NCBI GenBank assembly: GCA_964645795.1
Contig: CAZYCL010000002.1
Location: forward strand, 80,352 to 144,351
Direction: 5' to 3'
DNA from: an uncultured Planctomycetales bacterium
GTDB lineage: Bacteria > Omnitrophota > Gorgyraeia > Gygaellales > Profunditerraquicolaceae
DNA: 64,000 nt
Below are positions 3,051 through 53,681 of this stretch, one piece after another. The position numbers and the translations under genes are program-made. The notes beneath the pieces are model-generated. The model was not told the origin of the DNA. It made no database searches and was given only the letters and a program-made list of their open reading frames with translations. Numbering within the stretch: position 1 is the first letter of the stretch; each line of letters begins with the position of its first letter.

Positions 3051-3060
3051 TTTTCTCCTA

Positions 3061-5335: not shown

Positions 5336-6622
<1,287 letters not shown>

Positions 6623-7861
6623 TTACGGCGTCATGGTAAAGATCTTCTGCGCGATATCCGGGTATTTAGCGACAAACTTCAGCTCGTCGTCTACCAGGGG
6701 CTTCTGGTTATGGACGTTGGCGTAACGCACCAGCTCCAGGATCTTTGCAGCCTGCTCCTCGCTATCAAAGGCCACTTCCAGCTTATCGTAAACATTCCTG
6801 AAGCCCTTGATCCCCGAGTATTCTCCGGCGGTGATCTTGCGGCCGGTCTCGATTATCTCGGGGTCCCCCCTGCCCAGCTCCTCAAAGTCGTAAAGCTCGT
6901 AATTACGCCTGTCCTTCAGGGCCCCGTCGGCGTGTATCCCCGACTCATGGGCGAAGGCGTTTGCGCCTACCCCGGGCTGATTGATGGGAATGGGCACGCC
7001 GAAAGCATACGAAGCGTAAGTGCATACCTTCCACGCTTTTTTAAGGTCGATGCGCTCATCCAGGCGGTAATCTTTCATGCCGCTTCCGTATTTAATGGCC
7101 AATACTACCGATACCAGGTCAGCGTTACCCGCACGCTCCCCCATGCCGTTTATGCAGGTGTTGATGAAGGCATCCTGCCCGCAGTCATTGGCGGCCCTGG
7201 CACCCGCGATGGAGTTAGCCACGACCAGACCCAGATCATTGTGACAATGTATCTCTATCGGTATCTGGACGGCCTCGGCCAGCTTTTTGATCCTTTCGTA
7301 TATGCTGAAAGGCGTGTCAAAGCCCAGCGTATCGCAGTAGCGGATCCTGTCGGCTCCGGCTTCTTTGGCGGCCAGGGAAAACTCAATAAGGTAATCCATG
7401 CGCGTCCTTGAGGCATCTTCGGCGTTTACGCCCAGGGCCTGTGCGCCGGCCTTGCGCGCCTCCTTTACCGCCTCCGCCATCTCGTTGATCACCGAAGCGT
7501 GGTCAAGCTTGCCTTTGAATTTATGCATGATCATCTGGTCGCTGGTGGAGATGGAAAGGTTCAGGTATTTTATATGCGGCACCGACTTGAAAGCGGCCCT
7601 CACGTCTTCCCTGGTAGCGCGGATCCAGCCGCTCAGCCTTATCGGAGACATAGCCCCGGCCTTCACCAGCTCGAGATTGGCGTTTAGATAATTGGTCTCG
7701 TGCCGCGTTACCGGAAAGCCGAACTCGGATTGGAACACCCCGAATTCGTTGAAATAAAGATTGAGCATCGTCTTCTGCAGCTTTGAGAGGCATATGCGCG
7801 AGGTCTGCACGCCGTCCCGGTTAGTCACGTCGATTATATAGATATTGGGCGTCTTCTTCAT
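6623..7861 (-). CDS. HMGL-like (DRE-TIM) synthase of the homocitrate / isopropylmalate / citramalate / Re-citrate synthase family, lacking a LeuA-dimer regulatory domain
   Basis: 412 aa. It has an N-terminal IIDVTNRDGVQT block, the metal-site HCHNDLGLVVANS motif and AHESGIHADG, which together define the LeuA/NifV catalytic barrel. Confidence 0.7.
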   Translation of the reverse strand: MKKTPNIYIIDVTNRDGVQTSRICLSKLQKTMLNLYFNEFGVFQSEFGFPVTRHETNYLNANLELVKAGAMSPIRLSGWIRATREDVRAAFKSVPHIKYLNLSISTSDQMIMHKFKGKLDHASVINEMAEAVKEARKAGAQALGVNAEDASRTRMDYLIEFSLAAKEAGADRIRYCDTLGFDTPFSIYERIKKLAEAVQIPIEIHCHNDLGLVVANSIAGARAANDCGQDAFINTCINGMGERAGNADLVSVVLAIKYGSGMKDYRLDERIDLKKAWKVCTYASYAFGVPIPINQPGVGANAFAHESGIHADGALKDRRNYELYDFEELGRGDPEIIETGRKITAGEYSGIKGFRNVYDKLEVAFDSEEQAAKILELVRYANVHNQKPLVDDELKFVAKYPDIAQKIFTMTP

Positions 7862-7873
7862 TTATCGTCTCCT

Positions 7874-8674
7874 TTATTGCCTCTTGAAAATCTTCTTAAG
7901 CTCTTCTTTGCTGGGGGCCTCTGCCCCGGAGCTGTAGATCTCCTGGTTATTGACGAAGTATACCGGCCCGCTGCTAATCTGCAGGCTTCGGCCCAAGGAC
8001 AGGTTGTTCTCCAGGAGCGCCTTGCCTTCTTGCGAGCGCGCGCAAGCTTTTATCCGTTCGGCTGCCGCAGGCCCGATACAATCTTCCCACCAGCTGCTGT
8101 TAAACCTTGTTGCCCTGCAGATAATGTAATCCCAGAATTTTCCCGGATAAAGCCTCTCAACGCATACCGAGCGCAGATACTCCTCCGCCTCGGGATCCCC
8201 CTTGGTTTTATCAAGGCGGCTGGAGGCAAGCGGCAGAAAATGCACCCTGGGTTTGAAATCCTTCACGTTCGCCAGTATATCGGCGGCATTGGGATCATAC
8301 AGGCTTAAGAAAACATCTATCTGCCCTTTTATCCTGGGCCGGTCCAAAAAGTAGGATATGCCGCTAAGCCTCGATGATAACAGGTAATACTGGCCTTTCG
8401 GCTCAAGGTCGGCCTTGAGCATCTTAAACCCATACTCCTTATCTATATCCTTGGCGAACAGATATGCGGGCAGGCTTTTAATGGCCAGTTCGCCGACAAG
8501 CTGCGCCGCCTTGGCGGAGTTAGGATAATATATATGTGAAACCGTCAACCCCGGAAACCTTTTTTCCAGAAATTCTATCAGCGGAGAATTATCCGTGGGA
8601 AGCTGGTCCTTGGGGGTAATTACGGTCAAGGCGACCTTAGTGGCTGCGCTAAACTGGCAGCGAGAACCGGGCAA
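7874..8674 (-). CDS. Hypothetical protein, possibly a thioredoxin/DsbA-like fold without a CXXC motif
   Basis: 266 aa with no recognisable catalytic motif. The C-terminal ..PVYFVNNQEIY resembles a DsbA-like C-terminus. The true start is probably an internal Met. Confidence 0.3.
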   Translation of the reverse strand: MPGSRCQFSAATKVALTVITPKDQLPTDNSPLIEFLEKRFPGLTVSHIYYPNSAKAAQLVGELAIKSLPAYLFAKDIDKEYGFKMLKADLEPKGQYYLLSSRLSGISYFLDRPRIKGQIDVFLSLYDPNAADILANVKDFKPRVHFLPLASSRLDKTKGDPEAEEYLRSVCVERLYPGKFWDYIICRATRFNSSWWEDCIGPAAAERIKACARSQEGKALLENNLSLGRSLQISSGPVYFVNNQEIYSSGAEAPSKEELKKIFKRQ

Positions 8675-8725
8675 GCCCTTATCCCGTTTTGCCCGTTCAT
8701 GCCCTTTTTCGCACTTTGGGGGTTT

Positions 8726-9652
8726 TTAAAACCCGCGCGGGATATTGGTGGCCGTCTTTTTATCGTGTGGCACATCGCTGGTCAGCCTTATCCTGCGCGC
8801 CTTCCAGGATTTGATACTGGAACCTTCCACCTCCAGGGATAGCTCCCCCATCTCTCTGCCCTGCCAGAATGAATTAAGCATGATCGTCTTAGCGAACGCG
8901 CTGCCGGCAGGCATATCCGCGATCCTGCTGTTTGAATTTATATAAACATCTATTCCCTCTACCGTATTAAGAAGCTTCAAAAGCTGTTCTTTTTCCAGGC
9001 CCCCCAATACGACGATAAGGCAGGCGCCCTGCTTCTTAAGCTCAGCGACTGTCTTGGCTGCTGCGGCTACCGGGTCGAGTATCCGCGCGTCTTTGGGAAG
9101 CTTTCGCGGGGCCGGCATATTGGCGAGCGCCAGGACTACGACCTTGAGACCTCCTATCTCATTCACGATATATTCCTGTGCGCCGGGCATCTTTATGTTG
9201 CTGCAGACGAAATAAGGCCCGGTATCTAATACGCTCTTCTTAAGGAAATCATAACCAAAATTGAACTCCTCCTGAGTTATCGCAACCGCATCATAACCCA
9301 TTAACCCCATGGCCCGGACATTCACGCTGCTGCGCAGCTTATCCAGATCTTCATTCTGGGAGTATTCGTCAAAGAACCCGCCGGCCAGGAACCCTCCGGC
9401 ATCCAGGACCAGAAGATGCGCATGCTTTTTACGCATGTCCCTTAAAGCCGTAGCCCTCCGGGCAACCCCTCCTTCGGGACTCTTAGGGCAGCGGCAGGGA
9501 TAAAGCGCGGCGTGCGTCTGTCCGGTGTAAATAATGGCGAGCTTCTGTGAAGCTTCGGCTTTAGCCGGCGCCTGGGTGAAAAAGAGGCAGGCTAGCACGC
9601 ATAACCTGAGCGCTATCGCATTATTCATGGCCTTTTTATTTGTCTTCAGCAT
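8726..9652 (-). CDS. Secreted calcineurin-like metallophosphoesterase / 5'-nucleotidase-like protein whose catalytic residues appear degenerate
   Basis: 308 aa with a signal peptide (ALRLCVLACLFFTQAPAKA). The block layout AIIYTGQTHAAL / LDAGGFLAGG / AITQEEFNFGYDF parallels the UshA-type motifs ILHTND-H / DAGD / GNHEFD, but the His and Asp residues are replaced. Confidence 0.45.
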   Translation of the reverse strand: MLKTNKKAMNNAIALRLCVLACLFFTQAPAKAEASQKLAIIYTGQTHAALYPCRCPKSPEGGVARRATALRDMRKKHAHLLVLDAGGFLAGGFFDEYSQNEDLDKLRSSVNVRAMGLMGYDAVAITQEEFNFGYDFLKKSVLDTGPYFVCSNIKMPGAQEYIVNEIGGLKVVVLALANMPAPRKLPKDARILDPVAAAAKTVAELKKQGACLIVVLGGLEKEQLLKLLNTVEGIDVYINSNSRIADMPAGSAFAKTIMLNSFWQGREMGELSLEVEGSSIKSWKARRIRLTSDVPHDKKTATNIPRGF

Positions 9653-11232
9653 TGCCTGATGGCTTTCACTCCCAGGACATTTTCGATCTTCCTGATCTTT
9701 TCCAAGAGCTCGTTGGATATCTGGCTGTCGACATTAAGCACGCTTATGGCCCTGCCGCCCGGCTTGTCGCGGCCGAAGGTCATCGCGGCAATATTGATAT
9801 GTTCCTTTGCCATAAGGGTGCCCATATTCCCGATAAGGCCGGGTTTATCCCAGTTCTGCAGGAAGATCATCTCGCCGACCGGCGCTACCTCAACGTAATA
9901 CTCGTCGATCTTGACTATGCGCGGTTGTTTATTCGAAGACAATGTGCCGCAGATCTTCTTGGTCTCTTTATCGGTCTTAACGGTCAGCTCAACGAGGTTA
10001 ACGAACTCCTGCTCCTTGCTGGACTTGGCTTCTTTGATGTTTATGCCGCGGCCCTTGGCCAGGGATACCGCGTTGATGAAATTCACCGTCTCTTTAAGTA
10101 TCGGCGAAAGCATCCCCTTTGCCAGCGACATGGTCAGGGGGCTTAAGTCGTGCTTGGTGATCTCACCGCTGTAGGATATGTCCAGCTCCAGAAACCTGCC
10201 TTCTACCAGCTGCGAAGAAAAGATCCCCAGCTTCTCGCACAATACGATATAAGGATCGAGTATCCTGCAGGTCTCGGCTTCCAGGCACGGATAGTTGGCG
10301 GCATTGCGTATACCCCTGCCCAAGAGCGCATCTCTTACGATCTCGGCCACCTCTATGGCGACGTTGACCTGCGCTTCTTCGGTGGAGGCCCCCAGATGGG
10401 GGGTCAGGATCACGTTATCTAGCTTGAGCAGCTCATGATTGGGGTCAACGGGCTCTTTTTCGAAGACATCGAGGGCAACCGCGGCGACTTTCCCCTCTTT
10501 TAGCGCGCCAACCAGCGCAACTTCATCGATGATGCCGCCCCGGGCGCAGTTGACCAGGCGCACCCCCTTCTTCATCTTGGCAAAAGCATCGGTAGAGATC
10601 ATATGCCTGGTCTCCTCGGTTAAAGGCGCATGCACCGTCAGATAATCTGCCTGGCTGAAGATATCGCTTAACTCCATGCTCTCGATGCCCAGGCTATCAG
10701 CTACCTCTTTTGACAAAAACGGATCGTAAGCAAGTATCTTCATGCCGAAAGACAACGCCCGCTTGGCCACCTCTGTGCCGATCCTGCCCAGGCCTATGAT
10801 ACCCAGGGTCTTGCCATAGAGCTCCACCCCCATGAACTTGGAACGTTTCCATTCGCCTTTTTTGGTGGAGGCGTTGGCCTGAGGGATATTGCGGGATAAA
10901 GACATGATCATGCTAAAAGTATGTTCGGCGGTAGAAATAGTATTTCCCGCCGGGGTATTCATGACGATTATGCCTTTTTGGGTGGCAGCATTAAGATCTA
11001 CGTTATCCAGCCCCACGCCGGCACGGCCGATGACTTTAAGGGACGAGGCTTCGATGATATCCTTGGTGACCTTGGTAGCGCTCCTCACGATAAGCGCCTG
11101 GTAGTCCTTGATCGCTTCCTTTAAGGCATCGGGTTTGAGGTCCGTCTTTACGTCGACTTGAAATTCTTTTACCTCTTTGAGGATCCTGATCCCTTCATCT
11201 GACAACTGGTCGCTGACTAATATCTTATACAT
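9646..11232 (-). CDS. serA: D-3-phosphoglycerate dehydrogenase with a C-terminal ACT domain
   Basis: 528 aa. It has a 2-hydroxyacid dehydrogenase fold with GIIGLGRIG. The total length fits long-form SerA with ASB and ACT domains. Confidence 0.92.
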   Translation of the reverse strand: MYKILVSDQLSDEGIRILKEVKEFQVDVKTDLKPDALKEAIKDYQALIVRSATKVTKDIIEASSLKVIGRAGVGLDNVDLNAATQKGIIVMNTPAGNTISTAEHTFSMIMSLSRNIPQANASTKKGEWKRSKFMGVELYGKTLGIIGLGRIGTEVAKRALSFGMKILAYDPFLSKEVADSLGIESMELSDIFSQADYLTVHAPLTEETRHMISTDAFAKMKKGVRLVNCARGGIIDEVALVGALKEGKVAAVALDVFEKEPVDPNHELLKLDNVILTPHLGASTEEAQVNVAIEVAEIVRDALLGRGIRNAANYPCLEAETCRILDPYIVLCEKLGIFSSQLVEGRFLELDISYSGEITKHDLSPLTMSLAKGMLSPILKETVNFINAVSLAKGRGINIKEAKSSKEQEFVNLVELTVKTDKETKKICGTLSSNKQPRIVKIDEYYVEVAPVGEMIFLQNWDKPGLIGNMGTLMAKEHINIAAMTFGRDKPGGRAISVLNVDSQISNELLEKIRKIENVLGVKAIRQC

Positions 11233-11277
11233 TTAAATCCTCCCGTTCGAATACAATTAGAAAGCAGGAGACGCCGC

Positions 11278-12420
11278 CTACTTCAAAAACACCTCTTCGG
11301 CCGCCTTGACTCCCTGCCCCATGATAAAGGCATAACCCATCCCAGCCAATACCTTTTCAAGGCAGGAGATACCGGCAATAATATCGAACTCCTCGATAAA
11401 TCCCATGTGCGCGATCCTGAAGACCTTGCCCTTTAGCTCGTCCTGTCCTCCGGCAATAGTCACGCCGTAGTTGTCGCGCATGGTCTTAACCAGCTTTTCA
11501 CCGTCAAGGCCTTGCGGGACATTCACTGCCGTCACAACGTCCGAGGCCGCAGTCGGCGCAAAAAGGCTCAAGCCTAACGCCTTCATCGCGGCGCGCGCAG
11601 CATCGGCCATCTTTCTATGGCGGCTGAAGATGTTCTCCAGCCCATCCTGCTTCATCATCTTCAACGCCTCGTTAAGCGCTATAATCAGGGTGATCGCAGG
11701 GGTAAAGGGCGTATCGGTCTTCTCCAGGGCTTTCTTGGACTTACGCAGATCAAAGTAGTAGCGCGGGGATTTCGAAGCCTCGACCAGCTTCAGGGCCTTG
11801 GCGCTTACCGATATAAAACCCAGTCCCGGAGGCAGCATAAGTCCTTTTTGCGAGCCGGAGACTACCACATCGCAGCTCCAGGCATCGGTCTTTAAGTCTA
11901 TGGCGCCCAACCCGCTTATGGCATCAACTACCAGGACCGCAGCAGTATCCTTTACGACCTTGCCCAACTCTTCGATGTTGTTGACTACGCCGGTGGAAGT
12001 CTCGCACAACGTAGCAAATACAGCTTTTATCTTAGGGTTAGCCTTCAATCTTTTGGCGACTTCCGCGGGATCCACGGCTTTTCCCCACTCCACATCGATT
12101 ATCTCGGGAGCAACCGCGTAGGCTTTGCACAACTCCGTCCATCTCTCCCCGAATTTCCCGCCCTGGATACATAATGCGGCATCTGCGGGAGAAAGAAGAT
12201 TGGCTACCGCAGCTTCCATGGCGCCGGTTCCCGAAGAAGCAAGCATGTATACATCGTTCTGGGTCTGGAAAATATATTTAAGGCCTTCGCTAACCTCCTT
12301 AATCACGGCTTGAAACTGCGGGGTGCGATGGTGGATGATCGGGCGCGCTGCAGCTTCTCTAACTTGCGGGGGAAGGGGTGTGGGCCCGGGTGTCAATAGG
12401 TAGTTCTTGCGCATTGCCAA
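11278..12420 (-). CDS. Class-V aminotransferase (serine-pyruvate/alanine-glyoxylate type). Because it is next to serA, it is probably the phosphoserine aminotransferase of this organism.
   Basis: 380 aa. It has LTPGPTPLP at the N-terminus and the PLP-lysine region SGSQKGLMLPPGLG. Confidence 0.8.
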   Translation of the reverse strand: MAMRKNYLLTPGPTPLPPQVREAAARPIIHHRTPQFQAVIKEVSEGLKYIFQTQNDVYMLASSGTGAMEAAVANLLSPADAALCIQGGKFGERWTELCKAYAVAPEIIDVEWGKAVDPAEVAKRLKANPKIKAVFATLCETSTGVVNNIEELGKVVKDTAAVLVVDAISGLGAIDLKTDAWSCDVVVSGSQKGLMLPPGLGFISVSAKALKLVEASKSPRYYFDLRKSKKALEKTDTPFTPAITLIIALNEALKMMKQDGLENIFSRHRKMADAARAAMKALGLSLFAPTAASDVVTAVNVPQGLDGEKLVKTMRDNYGVTIAGGQDELKGKVFRIAHMGFIEEFDIIAGISCLEKVLAGMGYAFIMGQGVKAAEEVFLK

Positions 12421-12468
12421 TCCTTTCTTTTAAAAGTTTACAGTTGTTGATTGTCGGGCGGTAAACGG

Positions 12469-13119
12469 TTATTTTTTCTTGTGCGGGACGATTACCTCGT
12501 CAATAAGTCCGTATTCCCTGGCTTCTTCTGCCGACATAAAATAATCCCTGTCCGTGTCTTTCTGGATGCGCTCCATGGGTTTGCCCGTATGATTAGCCAG
12601 TATCTCGTTTATCTTGTCGCGCATCTTCAATATCTCCTTTGCGTGGATGGAGATATCTGCCGCAACTCCCTGAATGCCTCCCCAGGGCTGATGGATCATG
12701 ATCCTGGAATTAGGCAGCACGAACCTCTTGCCTTTGGCCCCGGCCGCCAATAGCAGCGCCCCCATGCTTGCCGCCTGACCCACGCAATAAGTAGCCACGT
12801 CGCATTTTAAAAACTGCATGGTATCGTAGATCGCCAGCCCCGCGGTCACCGATCCCCCGGGCGAATTGACGTAAAGATTTATGTCTTTGGAGGCGTCTTC
12901 CATCTGCAAAAACAGCATCTGGGCGATCACCAGGTTTGCCACATAATCATCGATGGGCGTACCGATAAAAAGGATCCTGTCCTTGAGAAGGCGCGAATAG
13001 ATATCGTAGGCCCTCTCGTAGCCCCTGGAGGTCTGTTCGATGACCATGGGTACAAGGGTCTGCATCTTTGTGCTCATAACTTCCTCCGGATTTTGGTGTT
13101 TCAGCCTTCTATCTGCCAA
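12469..13119 (-). CDS. clpP: ATP-dependent Clp protease proteolytic subunit
   Basis: 216 aa. It has [19 protein letters not shown] and the catalytic Ser in GQAASMGA. Confidence 0.96.
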
Positions 13120-13979
13120 TCAGCTTCCTTGAGCAAAAACTCCATTACTCGGGTGGACATCTGGTTATCGAAAGCTATTGCCTCTCTTTTGGCGATCTCC
13201 GCAAGAACCAGGTAGACTTTTACCTGTTTCTTGGCGGTTGCCTCGAACTCCGCGCGCAGGCCCTTATCATGCTCTTCTATCTGCTCGCGGGTCAGCCCCT
13301 TCAGGGCAAGGTCGAGCTTCGCCTGTTTTACCAGGTCTGCCAGCTGCCGGCTCACCAGCGACGAGGGAAGATTGAAATCGAGATCCTTGGTTATGGCCTC
13401 GGCTATCTGGTTTTCCATCTTCGCCCTTTCCTGCTCCTCTTTGCGCATTAAGATCTGCCTTTCTACGGACTTTTCCAGCTGTGCAAGTTCCGGATAGGCA
13501 AGACTGCGCGCGAATTTATCATCCACTACTTCGGCCTTGCGCGCCTCTTTAAGGGAATCGATGCTGCGTTTTACCTCATCGGCGCTGACACTCGCCTTCT
13601 TAAAGACGAGTTTTATCCCTTTGTAGTTTCTAACCTTTATCTCGGGGGCTACTTCCACGGTTGCAGTAAAGCTCAAGTTCTCTTTATCCAAACGCACATC
13701 GCTTATCTGCGGCAGCTCCAGGACATCCAGCTTTTCCTGATTGACCGCCTCTTCATAGACATGGGGCACCAGCTCTTTAAGGACCTGCTCGTGGATAAGG
13801 CTGGAGTACTGCTTTTCGATCATGTCCCGGGGGGCGTGCCCAGGCCTGAAGCCCGGGATCTTGGCTTCTTTGCTGACGCTTTTATACACGTCCTCGAATT
13901 TGTTCTTGACTATCTCTCCGCTTACTGCGACACTTATCTGGCGTTTTATCGCGTCGATCTTCTTGACTTCGGTCTTCAT
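13101..13979 (-). CDS. tig: Trigger factor in a short form. It has the N-terminal ribosome-binding domain and the C-terminal chaperone arm but lacks the central PPIase domain.
   Basis: 292 aa with the [10 protein letters not shown] signature loop, lying directly upstream of clpP in the conserved tig-clpP order. It is about 140 aa shorter than canonical 430-aa trigger factors. Confidence 0.8.
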
Positions 13980-14023
13980 TTTGATCCGGTTTCCTTTCGT
14001 AAGATTTGGCTGCTATGATGAAT

Positions 14024-14746
14024 TCACATCCTGAACTTCTCGCCCAGATATATCTGGCGCGCCTGGGGGTTGTTGATCAGGTCCTGGGCGCTTCCGGAGA
14101 TCAGTATCCTGCCTTCGGCGATAAGATAGGCCCTGTCGGTGATGGAAAGCGTCTCCCTTACATTATGGTCGGTAAGAAGTATCCCCAGCCCCTTGTTCCT
14201 GAGCTCGCGGATGATTTCCTGGGCCTCGCTGACTACTATCGGGTCGATTCCCGAAAAAGGCTCATCGAGAAGTATGAAAGAGGGGTTAGTCACCAGCGCC
14301 CGGGTGATCTCCAGCCTTCTCCTCTCTCCTCCCGAAAGCGTATAGGCCTTGTTCTTGGCCAGATGCGCGATGTTGAGCTCCTTCAACAGCTCTTTGAGGC
14401 GGCTATCCCTTTCGGCCCGGCCCATGGGCAGGGTCTCCAGGATCGCCATGATATTGTCCTCTACGGAAAGCTTCCTGAATACGGAGGCCTCCTGGGATAA
14501 GTAACCTATGCCGTAACGCGCGCGCTCATGTATAGGCATGCGGGTTATGACGGTATTATCAAATACTATCTTTCCTTCATCCGCCGCTATTATACCCACG
14601 ACCATATAGAAAGTGGTGGTCTTACCCGCGCCGTTGGGGCCGAGCAGCCCCACGATCTCGCCGCGCTTGACCAGGATATCCACGCCCTTTACGACCTGGC
14701 GGCCGTCGTAGGATTTGGTTAAACCCTTAATCTCGAGAAGATGCAT
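14024..14746 (-). CDS. lptB: LPS export ABC transporter ATP-binding protein
   Basis: 240 aa. It has Walker [10 protein letters not shown], the LSGGERRR signature and the characteristic LptB C-terminal tail. Confidence 0.9.
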
Positions 14747-15637
14747 TTATTGTAGCTCCTCGGCAGAATAGATTATAAGCTCCGGGCGGCCGTTCAAAGT
14801 GATCTTTCTGTCTTTGACCGAATAAACCGCCTCATCGCTGGTAGAGATATTGTCGCCCTGGACCACCTTTACCCGGCCGCGGGCAACGACCTTGTCGATC
14901 TTGCTGCCGGCAAGCGCCTTTTCTTTCCCGGATGCGCCTTTTTCCTCAGGGCTTGCCGTAGATACGAAATAGACGTCCATCCTGTCGCTGTAGATGGTGG
15001 AATCAAGCCTTTCTACTTTAACATTATTATAAAAAGAAGCAATATTTTTTTCATAATCGATATCCATGGGCCCGTCGCAGGTGATCACTATCTTCTCTTT
15101 GCCCACGGGGCTCGGCTCCTTATCCAGCGGCAGGGGGTTGACCTGGACTTTTACGTCCTTTTCCAGGGCTACCTTTTTTAATCCCGGCTGGCCTTTGGCC
15201 CCAAGCGCATCGGCAACTATATTGTCGCGCCGGATATTCACGGGGCTGGCGGTACTGACCAACTCCTGCTTCCTGTCCCAATCAAGCGAGTCGGTAGTAA
15301 GCCTGGCACCCGCAGGGGTGGTGATGACGACATTCTGCTGAAGATGCACCTTGCCGTCATTCTTGTTAAAATCGCCCTTATCCGCCGAAAGCTCCACCTG
15401 CCCGTTATCCTGATAGAGGTTGCCTTTAATATCGTCGAGCTTGACGGAGTTAGCGAAGATATCGGCGGTCTTGCCGTAAAGATCCCAGCTCTTTTTGCCT
15501 TTTTCTCCGTAACCGGAAATGGAAAAATCCCCCATCTGCTGCTCTGATTCTACCGAAGGAGGCTGCTCTTTGGCGGATACGCCGGATACCAAAAAGAGAA
15601 TGAAGACGTAAAGAAAAACATGGCTCCTAAATATCAT
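14747..15637 (-). CDS. OstA-like periplasmic LPS transport protein (LptA, or a fused LptC/LptA)
   Basis: 296 aa. It has a signal peptide and a beta-jellyroll OstA-like repeat composition. It sits directly upstream of lptB and downstream of kdsC, which is the canonical kdsD-kdsC-lptC-lptA-lptB order. Confidence 0.7.
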   Translation of the reverse strand: MIFRSHVFLYVFILFLVSGVSAKEQPPSVESEQQMGDFSISGYGEKGKKSWDLYGKTADIFANSVKLDDIKGNLYQDNGQVELSADKGDFNKNDGKVHLQQNVVITTPAGARLTTDSLDWDRKQELVSTASPVNIRRDNIVADALGAKGQPGLKKVALEKDVKVQVNPLPLDKEPSPVGKEKIVITCDGPMDIDYEKNIASFYNNVKVERLDSTIYSDRMDVYFVSTASPEEKGASGKEKALAGSKIDKVVARGRVKVVQGDNISTSDEAVYSVKDRKITLNGRPELIIYSAEELQ

Positions 15638-45790: not shown

Positions 45791-45830
45791 AAAAAAAGAC
45801 GACTCCTTTTTACGGGAGCCGTCTTTTTTA
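45791..45830. terminator. Bidirectional rho-independent terminator between the convergent helicase gene and the giant gene
   Basis: The sequence aaaaaaAGACGACTCCtttttacGGGAGCCGTCTttttttta forms a GC-rich stem with A and T tracts on both sides. Confidence 0.7.
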
Positions 45831-45848: not shown

Positions 45849-48800
45849 TTAGAGCGAATCTACGATGACCAGCGCCTCTTTAAGGGCGTTATCCACTGGC
45901 TGCACAGCCTCTTCCTGAAGCCTACAGATACGCATTAAACAGCTCATTAACTCTTCCTGATGACTAACCAGCTGCTTTTTGTGATAGCAGGCAGCGATCA
46001 GCTCTTTGACCCTCTCACCGGAAGGGGCAATACCGCGCTCTACCATCAGGTTTATATCTTTTAACTCCTTATCTACGTTAATTGAGGCTAACCCCGCAGG
46101 CCTGGGCAGGGCAAAGCTTAAGCCGCAGAAACCTCCCATGGGCTTGCAGGTCATGGGAAGGGCGCGGAAGTCAATTCCTCCCAACTTTTCTTCGGGGGAA
46201 TTGATGCCGCCGGGGTTAAGGGGAGAACTAGACTCCTCTTCTTGCTGCCTCTGGATACCCGTGCGAACTTTGTTTTCGCTTCCAGAGGAAGATTCTCCTT
46301 CCTCAAGCACGATTGCCCCATTCAATCCTTGCAATCTTCCTCGCCAAAAGACCTGCCTGTCACTGTTGAGGGAAACAATTATATCGTAAGACTTCTTATC
46401 ATAATTAATCTCATTGTTTATTTTAGGAGGCCGCGCCTTAAATTCTACCCTTTCCTGCTTTCCGGAGATCACCTCTTCTATGGCACGGATAATTTCATTT
46501 TTAAGTAATGGCTTGCCGGCATCATCTACTATGTGCCACCGCTTGTAATAGATATCATCTAAAACCTCAGCTGCTTGCTGCACCGGCGAGCCAGAAACTG
46601 AATTTTCAATCGCGGGGATATGGATCAACCCTTTACCGGAATAAATGCTCATTCCGGTTTCTGAGGCCTCATTTAAACCATTCACCAACTCTATAGCTTC
46701 TTTTATCTGAGATTCAGTGACCCTGAATTCTTTCTTTAGCTCTTCGATATGCAAAACTGAACCAGGAGTTGCTCCTATAAGTTTATCTGTCAACGCTGCC
46801 CTGCCGCGCGAAGAATTACCCTGCACCGGAGAGCTGGAACGCGCCAGGATCCTTAGACTGTTTCGGTCGATCCGGTTAAGAAACTCTCGAAATTTCTTAA
46901 TTGTACTTTCAGGAAAATTAAGCTTATGCATCTCATCGAATACTACATAACCATCATCCCCAAGCTCCATCAAAGGGAATCTTATATTATCTGACGCCCT
47001 CCCCAGATAAAGTATGTACCCGGCAGCCAGTATCTCCAAACGGCTTACTTCTGATGAACCCTTATTTTTGTACTCATCAGGAATACCTACATAAGGATTA
47101 TTAACGACTTCCCTGATGCCCTTCTGTGCCTCAGGGGTAAGCATGTAATATTTTAATACTCCACTCTTATCTTTTCTTAATAACCACATGATGCTTTGCA
47201 GGATCTCAGAATACCTCAGCCAGGATTTTTCTGAGTAAATCAAACCTGACTTTCTGGAGCGGGCCCAAGAAACCCCAATTATCTTCAAAGCCCTTTCTTG
47301 TTCTTCTAAAGTAAGAAAACCCCAATTTTCATTAATGGACTTTATCTCTTCACAGGAAACGGTGATCTCAATCCGTTCTTTAAAATTAGCCTCCAGCTTC
47401 CTCAAGTCTTTCTTCACCTTGTTATAGATTATAGGGCTAGAGGTATTTATAACCGGCGAGCTTTGGCGCGCCTGTGTGTTTGTTCCCTGCACCGGCGAGC
47501 TGGACACTTCTTCATAGTTTGTTAAATCTTCTGTTCTCGTGTTTCTCCAAACGGGATCATGCCAGGTCCTGACAGCCTCAAATTCTACTTTCGTTTTATT
47601 GCAAAGGAGCAAATTTGCAGCTACTTGGCGATACTGGCGATTATTGACGAAATCCCCTCCCGAATCATCTGACCTGTAATAATCCGCCGTTTCCAGAAAA
47701 TCATCTTTGAGCAACTTAATATCGTTTTTATTAAGCTCTATGATCTTATTTTGCTTTCTTAATTCCTTGGAGAGCTCTAGTAAAGCAGAAATAAGGTGCG
47801 GGATATCGTCACGGAATGTAAAATCGTTTCGATTCTTAACCAACTCCCTGTAAAAAGAAAACAGCTTGCCTATCAACTCGCTTGTTTCCGGAATATCAAT
47901 CAGGGATGCACGAAGCAGATAAAACGCTTCTAAAACCTCTCCCATGCGGCGATGATCGTCAAAGCCGTAGCGCTCGCTGTAACTGGGATAATGTCTCATA
48001 TCCAGATATTTATCAATCAGCTGCGATACAGCGGTTAGTTTCTCCTTTTTGGAAGCAGCAACATTATCTGCTATGCTTATGATCTCTCTAAGACTCATAT
48101 CCTTGGCGCTATCGATAGGCGAACTTTGGCGCGGCTTGTCCTTTGTATCCTGCTGCGATTCGCTGGAGCCGGATTCATCATCATCCGAATAGAGGGAAGA
48201 GTACAGATCCTCATCGTCCGTTTCTTCTCTTGGCTCCTCTGCGCTATCATCATCCTCCTGCCTGCCTTTACTGACCTCGTACTCTTCTAGCTCACCTGCG
48301 CTTTTTCTTATAGGGCTGGAAGAGATCTCGGTCTTTATGGTGTCCCAATCGCTAATAATCCCTGCCAGCCTTGTCTTGGCTTCTTGGATAACGGACTGCC
48401 CTGCAATATCATCCTTGGAAAGCTTCAAGAATGAAGCGTTAGCCTCAACGGAAGATATCAGCCTTTTAGCATCAAGGGTATTAAAATTATCCGAGATTAT
48501 ATAGTCGATCTCGTAAAGGCTGTCATCGTTGATCACCAGGCCTTCTTTTTGTTTAGGCTTATACTCGATTATCATGTCCTGAAGCACCATACCGGCCAGA
48601 TTGTCCTTAAAGGGGAGGTTCTTTATCCTTTTCATCAACCCGTCAAGCCTGCCGGCAACAGCTTCAATACCTTTAACCGGAGAACTGCCCGCGAGCATCC
48701 CCACTATATTTGAGGCGTTACCGACCTTCTTAAACTCATTTCTATCCAGCTTCACCGTCTTCCAGTCTTTCGCCTGGGCTTTAATGATCTCTTTTGGATT

Positions 48801-51236
48801 AGAGCTGATGAACAGGCAGTTTTGAGGACCGAGATCTTTTCTGTTTCCCAACAACATGGCTGCGGTGTGATTACCTATTGTTTCTACTCCGCTGGTAATA
48901 ACGATATAACGCTCGTTGCTGGCTGAGGCTTCGTTGAGATACTTTCCCGCAGGGGCCTGCGTATCTATTGCCTCCACAAAATAAGCGGGTAGAAAGGCCT
49001 TCTCAGAGACAGGGACAACTATTACCTTGATCAAAGACTCTTTCACTTCAGGCATAAGCGACTTAAATCCGGATAAAAGAGGACTCAGGTCTTTATTTTT
49101 GTTATAATCATCGACCAAGGCCGCTATTGTCTCCTCTGTAACTATGGGGCTGGAGGCGGCCGCCTTGATGGCCTCTTGGGCCAGACGCTCCTGCATATCG
49201 GTATCCCACCAAAAAGCTCCTATTTTAACGCCGGGGCCGCCGCTGTATTCGATATAGATAGCTGAGGTGTAACTTATGTTTAAAATGCTTGGGGCCAGGC
49301 TTCGGATGACCCTGTCAAGTTGAACGGAAGTATTTCTGTCGGACGAGGCTTTCTGGCGGGCCTTTAGAATATCATCCAATATGCCTTTGACAAAACCAGG
49401 GATATCCTTATCAGCGATCTTTGATCTGATATATCCCTGGATGATGCCGGCCATATAATCATAATTACCACGAGCATCTTTCAGCGCAGCCTGGATCGCC
49501 TTGCGGGCCGAGGCGAAATCCATATCCTTGCTTAAACTTAAAGGACTGGAAGAGATAATATTTTTGACTTCCGGCATGGCATTGCCGTTCCAGCTTATAA
49601 TAAAAGCATCCGTAGTATTGGATTCTTCGGGATCGTAATTGTTCACATGGATGCTATTGGGGCTATAGCTTATAGTAAAAGGAAGGCGCCTTCTGTCTTT
49701 AATTCTGGTGGCATCGAACATGCTGGCTTTCTGCGTTAATATACTTTTGCCTTTATTGGCCTCCTCCAGGTATAGCGCGCTGACCAGCGAATTGCCTCCC
49801 GCATTAACCGCAAAACCCCGCGTTATCAACTCCTGCCTGAGCAGATCATCAAACATCCGCGCCTTACGCACAAACTCCGGGCCGGCAATGGGGCTGCTGG
49901 AATCGTCATCATCCCACCAAACATCCTCATGGTCCGATTCGTCTTCGCTTCTGTCCGGCGCTTCAGGCTCCGGGATCACCCCATCTTCGGGATTGATATT
50001 CGGGAACTTAGGCTCTTCATTGTTTTCTCCCTCGGTATTAGAAGGACGAAAACCGAGAGGGCTGGAACCGATCTTTACGCTTGCCAGCGGGTTTCCCGCC
50101 GTAGCGGGCACAGAAAGATGAACGAGCCCGGTATTAGCGGCAGGCGGGACCAACGCTGCCTTGCCGCTAAAAACATTGAAGATGCTGATGGGGCTGGAAA
50201 AAGACATGTTCTTGCCGGTAAAATCTGCGCCGCCTGAAAAGTAACTCCTGATAGATGCCCCGGTAAGAGTGCTGACAGGGGTCTTAAGATTGTATTCTCC
50301 CTTGTTAAAAGAATCCTGGTATTGTTTAAAGTACTCTGTTTTCGACCAGCTTTGAGTTGAAGTAAGATCGGCCAAGTTCTGGCTATTAATATAGGAGGAG
50401 TACGTGCCGCCCTTGCCGTAGAACCTGGATTTGAACCAACGGGCCAGGATCAGAGAGTAGTAGACCTGTCTTAGCTTAGCATAAGACCTGGAGTTGTTTA
50501 CCTCTTTAGTCAGCTGGGGAATGATGAGCTCGCGGATGAGCCGGGATGAGTATTCATTGAGCTCTTTCTGCCTGGGATCATTGAACGAATAGACTGCCGA
50601 GTCCTTCAGATGGTCCTGTTCGAGCATTACCCTTAAGTTTGCTTTGTAGATATACGCGGAGTTTTCTGATTCACGGATGATTATCTCACCCGGCACGATC
50701 CAGGGCCGGGTGAGCGTAGGGATGGAGACGTTCTCCGTGCCAAAGAGCTCAGCTGCTTTCTTATAGAGCTTATCCCAGTAGAGCTTTCCGTTAGGAGTTT
50801 GTGGCGAGGTAAGACGCGCGGTATCTTTTTTAAGCTTGAGGTCTGCCCCTAACAGGATCTTTCCCACATCGGTGCGCGCCAGAAGACCGGAGATAATATT
50901 ATCTTCTGAGTCAGGCCTGAGATTCACCCAGAAGTTATCATCGCTTAAACTAACGCCTATAAAAAAGTATTTCAGGAGCTCTTGGCCGGAAGCCTCAATA
51001 GAGGCGTCCTTAGGCTGCTTAAGATCTCCTTTATCTAAAAGCAGGTTTATACTGTTCGAAGGCAGGTCATAGGAGAAGTATCTTAGGTGCGGCAGGCGGA
51101 ACTTTTCTACGCTTAAACGCGAGCCTAGCACTCCCATATGGGAGGCAAGATTCAGGTCTACGGCTACCTGGGCAAAGCCAAGTTGAGTGAAAGAAAAGAT
51201 GAAGACTAGCATTAGCGATACTATCTTCTTTGCCAT
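45849..51236 (-). CDS. Giant secreted protein of unknown function, about 1795 aa, with at least 13 copies of an S-S-P-[I/V/L] motif and poly-acidic tracts
   Basis: It is the longest ORF in the window. I place the start at the ATG at 51234-51236 (MAKKIVSLMLVFIFSFTQLGFAQ signal peptide), with the Shine-Dalgarno GGAGGG 6 nt upstream. The track's 51329 start has no RBS. No known domain signature was recognised. Confidence 0.8.
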   Translation of the reverse strand: MAKKIVSLMLVFIFSFTQLGFAQVAVDLNLASHMGVLGSRLSVEKFRLPHLRYFSYDLPSNSINLLLDKGDLKQPKDASIEASGQELLKYFFIGVSLSDDNFWVNLRPDSEDNIISGLLARTDVGKILLGADLKLKKDTARLTSPQTPNGKLYWDKLYKKAAELFGTENVSIPTLTRPWIVPGEIIIRESENSAYIYKANLRVMLEQDHLKDSAVYSFNDPRQKELNEYSSRLIRELIIPQLTKEVNNSRSYAKLRQVYYSLILARWFKSRFYGKGGTYSSYINSQNLADLTSTQSWSKTEYFKQYQDSFNKGEYNLKTPVSTLTGASIRSYFSGGADFTGKNMSFSSPISIFNVFSGKAALVPPAANTGLVHLSVPATAGNPLASVKIGSSPLGFRPSNTEGENNEEPKFPNINPEDGVIPEPEAPDRSEDESDHEDVWWDDDDSSSPIAGPEFVRKARMFDDLLRQELITRGFAVNAGGNSLVSALYLEEANKGKSILTQKASMFDATRIKDRRRLPFTISYSPNSIHVNNYDPEESNTTDAFIISWNGNAMPEVKNIISSSPLSLSKDMDFASARKAIQAALKDARGNYDYMAGIIQGYIRSKIADKDIPGFVKGILDDILKARQKASSDRNTSVQLDRVIRSLAPSILNISYTSAIYIEYSGGPGVKIGAFWWDTDMQERLAQEAIKAAASSPIVTEETIAALVDDYNKNKDLSPLLSGFKSLMPEVKESLIKVIVVPVSEKAFLPAYFVEAIDTQAPAGKYLNEASASNERYIVITSGVETIGNHTAAMLLGNRKDLGPQNCLFISSNPKEIIKAQAKDWKTVKLDRNEFKKVGNASNIVGMLAGSSPVKGIEAVAGRLDGLMKRIKNLPFKDNLAGMVLQDMIIEYKPKQKEGLVINDDSLYEIDYIISDNFNTLDAKRLISSVEANASFLKLSKDDIAGQSVIQEAKTRLAGIISDWDTIKTEISSSPIRKSAGELEEYEVSKGRQEDDDSAEEPREETDDEDLYSSLYSDDDESGSSESQQDTKDKPRQSSPIDSAKDMSLREIISIADNVAASKKEKLTAVSQLIDKYLDMRHYPSYSERYGFDDHRRMGEVLEAFYLLRASLIDIPETSELIGKLFSFYRELVKNRNDFTFRDDIPHLISALLELSKELRKQNKIIELNKNDIKLLKDDFLETADYYRSDDSGGDFVNNRQYRQVAANLLLCNKTKVEFEAVRTWHDPVWRNTRTEDLTNYEEVSSSPVQGTNTQARQSSPVINTSSPIIYNKVKKDLRKLEANFKERIEITVSCEEIKSINENWGFLTLEEQERALKIIGVSWARSRKSGLIYSEKSWLRYSEILQSIMWLLRKDKSGVLKYYMLTPEAQKGIREVVNNPYVGIPDEYKNKGSSEVSRLEILAAGYILYLGRASDNIRFPLMELGDDGYVVFDEMHKLNFPESTIKKFREFLNRIDRNSLRILARSSSPVQGNSSRGRAALTDKLIGATPGSVLHIEELKKEFRVTESQIKEAIELVNGLNEASETGMSIYSGKGLIHIPAIENSVSGSPVQQAAEVLDDIYYKRWHIVDDAGKPLLKNEIIRAIEEVISGKQERVEFKARPPKINNEINYDKKSYDIIVSLNSDRQVFWRGRLQGLNGAIVLEEGESSSGSENKVRTGIQRQQEEESSSPLNPGGINSPEEKLGGIDFRALPMTCKPMGGFCGLSFALPRPAGLASINVDKELKDINLMVERGIAPSGERVKELIAACYHKKQLVSHQEELMSCLMRICRLQEEAVQPVDNALKEALVIVDSL

Positions 51237-51294
51237 CTCAGACCCTCCATTTAATAAATCTTTCGCAAACTGTTTAACAATCAAAGACAAAAAA

Positions 51295-51339
51295 GGGAAA
51301 GAAATTGTCAGCAAAGGAAACCGTGGCAATTTCCTTCCC
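51295..51339 (-). promoter_or_regulatory. 13-bp stem hairpin (GGGAAAGAAATTG...CAATTTCCTTCCC) in the presumed 5' UTR of the giant gene
   Basis: The inverted repeat has one mismatch and a 19-nt loop. It lies 59-103 nt upstream of the start codon and just downstream of a 200-bp AT-rich island. Confidence 0.4.
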
Positions 51340-51556
51340 TTTAATGATACGAAACTAATATTATATAAAATTTAACATATATATCGCCTTTGTCAAGGCT
51401 GGAAAACGATTCTTGGCAGGAGATTTAGCGTAGAATGCATAATATGTTGGCATCCAATCAGTTACAGACTAAACAAAGTTTATATAAATATCAAAAATTT
51501 AAATATTTGAGAAATAAAATGAGAAATAAAAGGTGCCTGTTCTAAGGTTTCAGTGT

Positions 51557-51590: not shown

Positions 51591-53681
51591 TTAGAAGGAT
51601 GCCTTGAGCAAAGATAAGCTTTGCGCAGTATCTGGCAATCTTAAGAAAACTCCTAAACCGCCTGCTTCCTGGCGTAGCTCGGTAAGGGCTTTAAATGAAG
51701 CTTCGGCAAAATAATCCCTGACCATATGCGAAGGTACGCCGTCTAAATATCCTTTGGCAAAACCTACTGCCGGATATGCATAGCCGAAGTCTTCAGGGAC
51801 AAAGGAAATAATTAAAGGAAGGAACCTTTGAGGCTTGGCAAGCACCTGCTGGTAACTGATGTGCTGGTCGCTGGTCCCTTGCATCACCCACTCCTCTCCC
51901 TTTCTTACCAGGTAGTCCCTTAGGCTATAGAACTTATCTGCCTCAAGATAAATAAACGGGATAAGCTTGCGGCCGGATTCACGGGTGATCATCTTTAGCT
52001 TGGTTACAAGCGAAACCAATTCCTTTTTGCCTTTAATGAGCTTTAAGGATTTAAGTTTATCGATATTTGACTGCACGGCTGCTTTCCCGGCCTGCTGCTT
52101 AATAAACGCCTCGGCCTCATCCACGGCTTGGGGCCTTGCGTTACGGGCTTCCTGAAGGGCTTTCAATTTTTTTTCAAGCAATCCTTTGCCCAGCTCAACG
52201 TATGGCTGGCGCAGGAAAAGATTCTGCTGGATGATCCTGGTAGCAGGATTAGCGGGGTCGTTTAAATCCACTGCCTCTGCCTTAAGGCCGGCTTTGCTAA
52301 GCGCGCGAGCAATAAGGCGCGTGCCTACGGTATTGGTCATGCCGTAGAAAGTACTGAACAACCTTGCAAGAAGCATTGCCAGCTCCTGTTTGGCGAGGCC
52401 CTTGAAATCATCGAGCTCGATATTAAAAACATTGGCAGCCTTAATGCTTCCTGCGGCCTTTATCCTGCTTAGGTTTATCATTAGCCTATTGGCCTTTTTG
52501 ACATAGCGCTGTTTTTGGCTGGGCCAGTCTTTTTCCCTGACAGCGATAAGATTTATGAAGCCGTCCTGCCAGATGCTCTCGTTGAAATTCTGCTCGATGG
52601 ATTTGCCGAACCAAAATAGATAATCGGGTAAAAGCAGCGCTATATCAGTTACTCCTTCATCGAGCATTTTGTTTCCCAGAATCACGCCCAGATGCTCTCC
52701 CCGGCGGATATCGGATATTGCCTGCCTTCGGCACTGCCAGTAAGCCGAAGCATCCAGATCGTAATAGGCCAGAAAGGTCATCATGTGCAGGTCCGCGGTC
52801 CAGCGGCCGCCTACGTTATCGAACATCGCCCCAAATCCAGGGGCATCATCGCCAAACTCCCTGTCTAAACCTGAATTCCTGATAAAAGCCGAAAGCCTTG
52901 AGGCCTGCGGCCTGTCGGTAGTCTCAAAGAACATATTCCCTAGCACGACAGCCAGTATCTGCCGCGTCTTTTCAACGGTTATGCTTATGCCGCATCGGGC
53001 GGCGGCATCTTTGACTTTTGCTACACTAAAACCCCTGAACAACTCCTCACTCTTGCGCTCGACTCCGTCAATAAAATTTATCTCATGCAGAAGGTCCAGT
53101 ACGGTCTCGGCGAACCTTTTACCGTCCACATCCATAACATATGCCACCTTCTCAAGCAGGAGCGCGAATATCTGGACAAATATAAGCATGGTTTCATCGG
53201 TTGAGCCGGATTTGGAGCTGGGGATAACTACGACCTGGTCCCATCCTATGCCAAGGCGCCTGACCTCATCTTCCATCGAACGGCGGTAGTCTTTGCCTAA
53301 CTCGTACTCACCGGTGATCTTTACCGAACCGCCATCCAGTCTCTCGAATGCCGAAGCGATCCCCTGAAATGGAGTATGTTGGCCGCCGATACCGGGCTTT
53401 ATAACATACCTTATCGGCCTGCCTATACGCTGCTGGCGCCGCCGGAAAAACTCTTTCATCCTGCGCACCCCGCTTAGGAATATCTCCTGGCCGCCGTCTG
53501 CGTAATAACCCTGATTGCCGCTGAAAGCGTGGGAGCCGTCAATGGCCGCACCCTCTGCCACCCCGTAGCCTGACTGGAGGTAGCCGCCGCTTAAGAATGT
53601 TGCCGCGGTATCCTTGTTACCCGCAGCGTATAGGGGGGCCGTAAGCTTCTCTCTGATGACCTGTGCCTGCTGTTTTTCCAT
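51591..53681 (-). CDS. Divergent glucose-6-phosphate isomerase (PGI/SIS superfamily) like protein with an extra C-terminal region
   Basis: 696 aa. It has the PGI-like motifs IKPGIGGQHTPFQG (GIGGS-like) and VVVIPSSKSGSTDETM (SKSGxTxET-like). It is about 150-200 aa longer than canonical PGIs. Confidence 0.5.
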   Translation of the reverse strand: MEKQQAQVIREKLTAPLYAAGNKDTAATFLSGGYLQSGYGVAEGAAIDGSHAFSGNQGYYADGGQEIFLSGVRRMKEFFRRRQQRIGRPIRYVIKPGIGGQHTPFQGIASAFERLDGGSVKITGEYELGKDYRRSMEDEVRRLGIGWDQVVVIPSSKSGSTDETMLIFVQIFALLLEKVAYVMDVDGKRFAETVLDLLHEINFIDGVERKSEELFRGFSVAKVKDAAARCGISITVEKTRQILAVVLGNMFFETTDRPQASRLSAFIRNSGLDREFGDDAPGFGAMFDNVGGRWTADLHMMTFLAYYDLDASAYWQCRRQAISDIRRGEHLGVILGNKMLDEGVTDIALLLPDYLFWFGKSIEQNFNESIWQDGFINLIAVREKDWPSQKQRYVKKANRLMINLSRIKAAGSIKAANVFNIELDDFKGLAKQELAMLLARLFSTFYGMTNTVGTRLIARALSKAGLKAEAVDLNDPANPATRIIQQNLFLRQPYVELGKGLLEKKLKALQEARNARPQAVDEAEAFIKQQAGKAAVQSNIDKLKSLKLIKGKKELVSLVTKLKMITRESGRKLIPFIYLEADKFYSLRDYLVRKGEEWVMQGTSDQHISYQQVLAKPQRFLPLIISFVPEDFGYAYPAVGFAKGYLDGVPSHMVRDYFAEASFKALTELRQEAGGLGVFLRLPDTAQSLSLLKASF

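Follow-up and report, generated by a model that had tools for sequence, protein, structure and literature searches.

The gingipains of Porphyromonas gingivalis (RgpA, Kgp and HagA) begin with a Sec signal and an N-terminal pro-region and end in a conserved C-terminal domain for sorting; the modules strung between them are parted by short protease sites (Arg/Lys-X), at which the chain is processed after export by their own protease. In the P97/P102 adhesins of Mycoplasma hyopneumoniae, endoproteolytic processing takes place at S/T-X-F↓X-D/E within disordered stretches. Here we analyzed a gene with a comparable layout in a 64,000-nucleotide (nt) stretch of DNA (the window) from an uncultured bacterium of the phylum Omnitrophota (GenBank assembly GCA_964645795.1, contig CAZYCL010000002.1, positions 80,352 to 144,351). 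The gene encodes a protein of 1,795 amino acids (aa), punctuated by the motif Ser-Ser-Pro followed by Ile, Val or Leu (the SSP site), and belongs to a family in which conserved N- and C-terminal caps (N-cap and C-cap) enclose a variable cargo. Gingipain-type polyproteins and processed mycoplasma adhesins can be regarded as its closest functional analogues, without homology. With gingipains it has in common a predicted Sec-type signal, a module string, a conserved C-terminal domain and short sites between modules. There is no similarity of sequence or fold: the gingipain C-terminal domain is a beta-sandwich for type IX secretion whereas the C-cap is helical, gingipains are cut by their own protease whereas none was found here, and their modules are adhesin domains whereas those of the capped family are metabolic enzymes or orphan modules. 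The P97/P102 adhesins resemble it as large proteins with a short linear motif between folded parts, cleavage being known for the adhesins; they differ in coming from an unrelated phylum, in using another motif and in lacking conserved caps and enzyme cargo. Viral polyproteins also join unrelated units in one chain with a short conserved site per junction, but the capped family is chromosomal, multicopy and cellular, with no protease in cis.

The same phylum encodes the Archaeovorins, giant proteins of more than 30,000 aa with many transmembrane helices (West-Roberts et al., 10.1101/2023.11.21.568195). In the portion of that preprint available to us, TIM, GPI, FBPase, PGM, aldolase and PPDK domains, extracellular by prediction, are described along with glycosyltransferase, methyltransferase, hydrolase, peptidase, radical-SAM and NUDIX domains, and its authors speculate on cleavage via C39 or S8 domains. 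The capped family resembles the Archaeovorins so described in phylum, in predicted export or membrane association and in part of its cargo (TIM, GPI, PGM, FBP aldolase/phosphatase, PPDK, NUDIX, HEAT, TPR and radical SAM). At 1,795 aa, with one hydrophobic segment and no Pfam domain, the protein studied here differs from them in size, transmembrane content and domains; the N-cap, the C-cap, GGIDFR and the SSP motif go unmentioned in the same portion of the preprint and in term searches of it. Signal-peptide fusions of "intracellular" enzymes have a precedent in an exported chorismate mutase-cyclohexadienyl dehydratase fusion (PMC10520331); as far as the accessible text goes, such fusions have two domains, are rare, carry no caps or junction motif and do not form a phylum-wide multigene family. 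The SpeD fusions of Omnitrophica (PMC10407285) were considered and found to be unrelated to the capped family. In the literature searched, which did not cover Kizina et al. 2022, we found no earlier description of the caps, GGIDFR, FWVNLRPD, the SSP junction motif or the family architecture, and term searches of the text available from the other main Omnitrophota papers gave no mention of fused or polyprotein-like genes.

The 1,795-aa gene belongs to a large, uncharacterized, phylum-restricted family, of which it is an extreme case. Searching 5.8 billion proteins returned at least 745 matches, and all those with a named source were labelled Candidatus Omnitrophota or Omnitrophica. What the query and these matches have in common is just aa 1 to 345 (53 to 66% identity) and aa 1680 to 1795 (30 to 67%). 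The earlier note, made from the letters of this DNA, had described a lone giant protein; instead, the protein is one of very many in an Omnitrophota family whose end caps are conserved. When one genome per species was scanned, at least 555 family loci were confirmed, with 3 to 4 per metagenome-assembled genome among the best 80. Complete family open reading frames (ORFs), the shortest of 609 aa and the longest of more than 3,000 aa, have the same head, with GGIDFR lying about 115 aa from the C-terminus in most; some family ORFs above 3,000 aa extend past the edges of their loci. Between the caps, relatives carry sugar enzymes (transaldolase, phosphoglucomutase, two kinds of glucose-6-phosphate isomerase, PGK, GAPDH, enolase, TIM, FBP aldolase/phosphatase, phosphoglycerate mutase and PPDK/PEP synthase), guanylate and adenylate kinases, and NUDIX, HD, HEAT, TPR, DnaJ, radical SAM and other domains. 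In the query, 13 SSP sites delimit seven orphan modules, two acidic spacers and the two caps, the most extreme arrangement among the relatives examined. We hold with high confidence the descriptive claim made up of family membership, the cap-cargo-cap layout and the junction role of the motif.

Several minor features of the family were also noted. At locus L034, two family genes stand in tandem (∼2950-7970 and 7974-15230). N-cap-only ORFs of 283 to 421 aa, each with a stop codon, occur at L014:8001-9053, L036:748-2013 and L022:6276-7127; they could be genuine genes, pseudogenes or assembly errors. Among 2.9 million viral contigs, 2 carry an N-cap (IMG/VR L083 and L084, 66 to 68% identity). We rejected a viral origin of the family, since these two contigs are weakly relevant and are probably misclassified cellular fragments.

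Within the 1,795-aa protein there are exactly 13 SSP sites (positions in Table 1), and the residue after the tripeptide is always Ile, Val or Leu. Composition predicts 0.18 occurrences, and 2,000 shuffles of the sequence averaged 0.17, never exceeding 3, so that the over-representation noticed earlier survives correction for composition. Three copies had been reported as conserved at the DNA level. This stands for two canonical sites, both SSPVQ (aa 1246 and 1468), with near-identical DNA; the third copy (∼46578) encodes a variant, SGSPVQ, at aa 1549. The remaining sites use differing codons, which argues for selection at the peptide level, as had been proposed, and rules out a DNA-level recombination signal. 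At all 13 sites the two serines are encoded by one TCN and one AGY codon (nominal chance, ∼4e-5); this pairing was not upheld in the family (62 of 122 sites) and may just reflect the local history of the sites. The acidic runs said to precede some motifs are confirmed ahead of sites 447 and 1038, where the SSP-delimited segments aa 391-446 and aa 973-1037 contain 34% and 35% Asp or Glu (D/E), respectively. In hydrophobic content, the seven longer intersite segments (116 to 208 aa) are like folded domains, and the cap models show low pLDDT where sites 347 and 1670 lie. The motifs are scattered rather than tandemly repeated, as first read, and lie at module joints. No similarity was detected among the query's modules. 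Since the modules are not mutually homologous and no repeat family matches, the motif is not part of a repeat unit; internal repeats, a repeat adhesin with SSP in its consensus and, more generally, a known repeat family in which SSP is just consensus, raised earlier as the refuting case, were all set aside on these grounds.

Across the family, [S/A/V/G/T]-S-S-P-[V/I/L/M] is the junction signal between modules: it lies after the N-cap, before the C-cap and on both sides of cargo modules. A logo of 264 non-identical sites contains no information beyond these five positions. When eight relatives were scanned with Pfam, no site fell inside a Pfam envelope, and TAL, PGM, GPI and enolase were each bracketed by sites. 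For example, the order in P0006 is site 541, TAL (562-939), site 950, PGM (1015-1405, Pfam domains I-III) and site 1571; in P0035, enolase (636-1099) is followed by a site at 1105. In an all-versus-all comparison of the middles, 150 of 350 homology end points lay within 12 aa of a site versus 38 expected, a count in which the end points are not fully independent. The few module matches of the query end at sites in both partners each time. In an alignment of six TAL-carrying members, sites occupy the same columns while linkers vary in length and sequence, which answers favorably the check on homologues that the earlier note had proposed. Of 151 members, 100 have a broad-motif site in the 30 aa that precede GGIDFR, versus 1.8 expected. 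Enrichment in the family is 20-fold for SSP[IVLM], 5.6-fold for SSA[IVLM] and 5.7-fold for [AG]SP[IVLM], versus ∼1-fold for controls. Site density varies by lineage: among 120 relatives, 27 have at least four sites and 62 have at most one. At nine motif-rich loci, family ORFs contain 68 sites in 22.6 thousand aa and neighboring ORFs contain 0 in 22.5 thousand aa. A genome-wide linker style was rejected, given the motif's absence from the non-family ORFs of these loci and its presence in only one further likely real gene of the window.

The N-terminus points to export. Family-wide, it consists of a basic n-region, an h-region of ∼13 residues and the small-x-small pattern FxQxGFA↓Q, which agrees with the Sec signal peptide read earlier; a Sec-type export signal with cleavage after aa 23 is predicted. 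Because twin arginines are not conserved (RR in just 21 of 169 members), the signal is of the Sec rather than the Tat type, and Tat export was set aside. The window also encodes 3-deoxy-D-manno-octulosonic acid (KDO) synthesis, LptB/C/A, LpxK, heptosyltransferases and OmpA; the KDO, Lpt, LpxK and OmpA genes indicate a diderm with lipopolysaccharide, an outer membrane and a periplasm. Aligned with that of 16 members, the N-cap (∼320 aa) shows 57 to 70% identity and over 100 invariant columns, and it is recognized by the stretches FWVNLRPD, DLQLKKD, IPTLTRPWIVP, KVMLEQD and YFSGG, which the query has; no structural match to it was found. The C-cap, with GGIDFR at aa 1684-1689, is 31 to 63% identical to aligned members, and its model is a confident four-helix bundle that resembles generic helical repeats and designed binders and nothing else. 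Five of the protein's eight Cys lie in the last 100 aa, so the Cys-containing tail described before is real, but it is the conserved C-cap. The N-cap ends in FSGG-[I/M/V/L]-[D/N/E]-[L/F/V/M] in 124 of 168 members (query aa 335-340), an echo of the GG-I-D-F-R start of the C-cap, which raises the possibility that the caps are halves of one ancestral unit; cargo may thus have been inserted at the GGID site of a single ancestral protein. In the query, a further copy, PGGIN, stands 10 aa ahead of GGIDFR and looks like a duplicated cargo insertion point.

The cargo of the 1,795-aa protein is essentially orphan. Pfam, NCBIfam, PADLOC and PHROGs gave no match to the full protein, in agreement with the first reading that no domain is recognizable; among PDB sequences, nothing matched the N-cap or the middle, and the C-cap had just a weak match to a PPR-like helical hairpin. 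The middle 1,200 to 1,270 aa had 2 matches among 5.8 billion proteins, its own database entry included. Among 1.84 billion representatives there were 4, of which three are modules of family members and the fourth, P0122, is a separate secreted protein of 500 aa without caps (33% identity to query aa 1075-1216); at least one orphan module therefore exists outside the family too. A cargo unit can also occur next to a family gene. The gene immediately upstream (51591-53681, minus strand; 696 aa) lacks a signal peptide, matches nothing in Pfam or among PDB sequences, and contains a SKSGSTDET stretch that recalls sugar isomerases. Its aa 36-696 are 51% identical to the cargo module of the family member P0017 (aa 418-1067), where an SSP site comes after the shared module. 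Thus, the same enzyme-like unit exists both free and capped.

Known secretion and toxin classes do not accommodate these features. Type IX cargo carries a C-terminal beta-sandwich sorting domain, and the C-cap is helical; autotransporters (type V) need a C-terminal beta-barrel of at least 250 aa, and the C-terminal conserved region here is 115 aa and helical. Substrates of sortase, exosortase or rhombosortase (LPXTG, PEP-CTERM or GlyGly-CTERM) were rejected, as the protein has no hydrophobic segment past the signal peptide and ends in ...EALVIVDSL. Polymorphic toxins (Rhs, CdiA) combine a conserved N-terminal body with a variable C-terminal toxin and an immunity gene downstream; here both ends are conserved with a variable middle, and downstream lies a convergent gene for a Ski2-like helicase. 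The suggestion of an adhesin or toxin has accordingly been dropped, there being no adhesin repeats, toxin domain or immunity-like neighbor.

How the joints work is a separate question. A short, strictly conserved site at each boundary, both caps included, set in drifting linkers is a signature of polyprotein processing, and the chain is probably cut or modified at its Ser-Ser-Pro joints. We tentatively favor, at somewhat less than an even chance, a Sec-exported, polyprotein-like carrier that is processed at the joints by a trans-acting enzyme. The protein would pass the inner membrane unfolded via Sec; a dedicated enzyme acting in trans, which we judge most likely to be an endopeptidase, would read the junction sites; modules would be released or loosened, as in polyprotein maturation; and export, anchoring or assembly would be the task of the two caps. 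The processing or docking polyprotein proposed in the earlier note fits the module joints of relatives. A number of observations weigh against the processed-carrier reading. No protease domain was found in the query with Pfam or NCBIfam, nor was any modifying enzyme identified. Across 78 loci, the window and the surroundings of a PGK-carrying member, no protease, secretion or immunity gene recurs beside family genes; a cognate protease may be encoded elsewhere in the genome. The N-cap has no invariant His or Cys in 16 aligned members. Proline directly after two serines blocks many proteases, and the tandem sites 5 to 13 aa apart (aa 1246, 1259 and 1266) are odd for cleavage, their spacing suiting a binding or modification motif at least equally. 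With no more than one canonical site in about half of the family, the exact site cannot be essential to family function. Export, too, is open to doubt: localization is called from sequence rules alone, it is physiologically puzzling that enzymes dependent on ATP or NAD (such as PGK, GAPDH and kinases) should be exported, and the free cargo homologue without a signal peptide next to the gene casts doubt on where the fused versions work.

A rival reading takes the motif as a modification sequon, for instance for O-glycosylation of one of the serines after export, by an oligosaccharyltransferase or glycosyltransferase, that would stiffen the linkers and shield them from proteases. We consider this unlikely. 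That proline after serine disfavors proteolysis speaks for it. The sites lie, often clustered, in Ser/Ala/Pro-type linkers of a Sec-exported protein, and the enrichment of both P and A variants resembles the Ser/Ala/Pro-rich contexts of bacterial O-glycosylation. Such glycosylation is carried out by PglL-type systems and, in Bacteroidota, at the sequon D-[ST]-[AILVMT]. The SSP pattern is unlike any known sequon, no oligosaccharyltransferase-like gene is linked to family genes, and general systems mark many exported proteins, whereas this motif is family-confined in all loci examined; as most of the non-family ORFs there are cytoplasmic, the last comparison is a weak test. This same family specificity would suit a docking peptide read in cis or trans by the C-cap or N-cap, giving a surface or periplasmic lattice that displays cargo; so would the position of a site nearly always just ahead of the C-cap, the multivalency offered by several sites per chain, and the far stronger conservation of caps than of cargo, as for shared interaction surfaces. 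Many capped members with few or no sites argue against docking, which we rate as the least probable of the rivals.

A reading without any reader takes the motif as a passive linker (flexible Ser-Ser, rigid Pro and a hydrophobic domain start) inherited with shuffled modules. Modules are plainly shuffled between paralogues, motif density is highly variable among lineages, and Ser-Pro commonly serves in linkers or as a helix N-cap. However, the folds flanked by the motif are unrelated (TAL, PGM, enolase, HEAT repeats and orphan modules) and thus have no common structural need, four to five positions are fixed with differing codons amid drifting linker sequence, and ordinary multidomain proteins of the same loci lack the motif entirely. 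With a 20-fold enrichment that would be hard to reach through inheritance alone, the passive linker seems quite unlikely. It is very unlikely, in our estimate, that the protein is not exported at all, its hydrophobic N-terminus being part of a scaffold in the cytoplasm or on the membrane face and the motif a hinge between enzymes tethered in a metabolon. The overwhelmingly cytoplasmic-type, cofactor-dependent cargo and the free, signal-less homologue (51% identity) would fit such a scaffold; so would the doubts about extracellular predictions for such domains that are voiced in the available part of West-Roberts et al. (10.1101/2023.11.21.568195). It sits poorly with the family-conserved n-region, h-region and small-x-small cleavage pattern, all canonical, with a charge distribution that favors N-in, C-out, and with a Cys-rich C-cap.

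Expression of the family may be coordinated. A conserved leader RNA lies upstream of about one-third of family genes and comprises, in order, a hairpin with an apical UGGAGG loop, UGCCACG and an intrinsic terminator, whose 5' arm (CCGGAUU) can pair alternatively with an upstream AAUCCGG. A covariance model (R1) from 8 seed sequences, run against 1.12 Mb, gave 29 matches, of which 28 are directly 5' of family genes. In the alignment of these 29 sequences, 90.7% of cells pair, versus 70.7% in shuffles and 32 to 51% in slid controls, and 18 of 21 pairs show compensatory changes; the alignment is model-fitted and leans towards structure. Neither the family leaders nor the query's leader has a match in Rfam, and the leader is a candidate for a new class of cis-regulatory RNA. 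The query's own leader (51287-51371, minus strand) is a weak echo (8.7 bits) that keeps just UUGCCACGGU and the terminator-like hairpin. In addition, a palindromic box, GAAA[GAC]CG[CT]TTTC (factor-binding candidate GAAAGCGCTTTC), is situated just 5' of a CTTGAA-type -35 element. It occurs 36 times in 1.02 Mb, in 33 cases ahead of family genes, at 32 to 33 loci (e.g., L021, L026, L044, L056, L068 and L076), a distribution that suggests a shared transcription factor operator and a regulon; the box was not found in the window. The first gene of the L034 tandem has both a leader RNA and a box of its own. Together, leader RNA and box suggest co-regulation of the family as a candidate regulon.

Omnitrophota are widespread, ultra-small, uncultivated and presumed to be predatory or host-dependent, and their large proteins are a current puzzle. 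The capped family offers tractable, normal-sized members with two defined caps, an export signal before housekeeping enzymes and a searchable junction motif. Should the joints be processing sites, they would represent a rare cellular polyprotein strategy and a handle on the maturation of giant Omnitrophota proteins. Should the enzymes act outside the cytoplasm, metabolic reconstruction would change, since KEGG-style calls count such domains as ordinary glycolysis. The most far-reaching proposal, which we regard as doubtful, is that Omnitrophota export central carbon and nucleotide enzymes as Sec-dependent polyproteins with common caps, matured at S-S-P-[V/I/L] and co-regulated by the leader RNA and the box. 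If so, part of "cytoplasmic" metabolism would work beyond the cytoplasmic membrane, in the periplasm, at the surface, in vesicles or in attached prey or host cells, and the 1,795-aa gene would be a member whose cargo was replaced by fast-evolving orphan modules.

Table 1. Features of the 1,795-aa gene, in window coordinates, and leader RNA matches at other family loci.
Feature	Position	Strand	Basis or remark
Coding sequence, 1,795 aa + stop	45849..51236	-	ATG to TAA, intact
Promoter-like TTGACA-16 nt-TAAATT with TG extension	51369..51396	-	10/12 matches, best of the region; consensus match alone
5' leader hairpin, 16-bp stem around UUGCCACGG, then U6; terminator- or attenuator-like	51286..51342	-	Folding
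Ribosome-binding site GGAGG	51244..51248	-	Sequence read; 8 nt 5' of ATG
Predicted Sec-type signal peptide, aa 1-23, MAKKIVSLMLVFIFSFTQLGFA↓Q	51168..51236	-	Sole strongly hydrophobic segment of the protein
N-cap, aa 24-346, end ...IRSYFSGGADF	50199..51167	-	Family-conserved
Junction site 1, FSSPI, aa 347	50187..50198	-	Sequence; low-confidence tail of N-cap model
Junction site 2, GSSPL, aa 391	50055..50066	-	Sequence
Acidic spacer, aa 395-446	49899..50054	-	D/E content of segment
Junction site 3, SSSPI, aa 447	49887..49898	-	P0010 module match begins here, with a site in P0010 at the matching end
Junction site 4, SSSPL, aa 563	49539..49550	-	Sequence and module-match comparison
Junction site 5, ASSPI, aa 695	49143..49154	-	Sequence
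Module aa 699-850, common to P0003, P0002 and P0121	48687..49142	-	42-48% identity; both partners have SSP sites at the alignment ends
Junction site 6, GSSPV, aa 851	48675..48686	-	Sequence and module-match comparison
Junction site 7, SSSPI, aa 973	48309..48320	-	Aligned to P0004 site 2281
Acidic spacer, aa 977-1037	48126..48308	-	D/E content of segment
Junction site 8, QSSPI, aa 1038	48114..48125	-	Sequence
Three-site cluster, SSSPV (aa 1246), QSSPV (aa 1259), TSSPI (aa 1266)	47430..47501	-	Sequence
Junction site 12, SSSPV, aa 1468	46824..46835	-	Aligned to P0016 site 1580
Junction site 13, SSSPL, aa 1670	46218..46229	-	Sequence; 14 aa ahead of GGIDFR
C-cap, aa 1683-1795	45852..46190	-	Invariant GGIDFR, extended LP..QPMG.F.GL.F.LP, four-helix bundle with 5 Cys
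Hairpin between A-runs and T-runs, bidirectional terminator-like	45791..45829	.	Between the 1,795-aa gene and the convergent helicase gene
Leader RNA matches at other loci	L009:618-725, L017:7871-7976, L025:7855-7960, L027:440-546, L069:6129-6232, L079:9829-9937, 22 more		Covariance model

As first reported, the coding sequence is the longest ORF of the window, and the public gene call has the identical start. The expression signals ascribed to it by the earlier note are present, namely a ribosome-binding site, a leader hairpin (dG -35.8 kcal/mol, z -3.0) and a terminator-like hairpin downstream, and a promoter-like site lies upstream. The gene's neighbors include the convergent Ski2-like helicase downstream, a Macro-NUDIX protein and a GH77 enzyme. 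Neighbors of family genes are housekeeping genes that differ by locus (elsewhere gyrBA, glmS, rsmI and groEL), and comparison of the window with other family loci revealed no synteny.

Elsewhere in the window, two adjacent ORFs (266 and 308 aa; 7874-9652, minus strand) lie between a homocitrate-synthase-like gene and serA and have no Pfam match. A long co-directional envelope cluster (14024-36157, minus strand) encodes LptB, an LptC-LptA fusion, KdsC/D/A/B, a PfkB kinase, LpxK and KdtA, together with three heptosyltransferase-type genes (among them a doubled GT9 and a GT4-GT9 fusion) and an LpxL-ELM1 fusion. From this cluster, the organism's genome appears rich in gene fusions.

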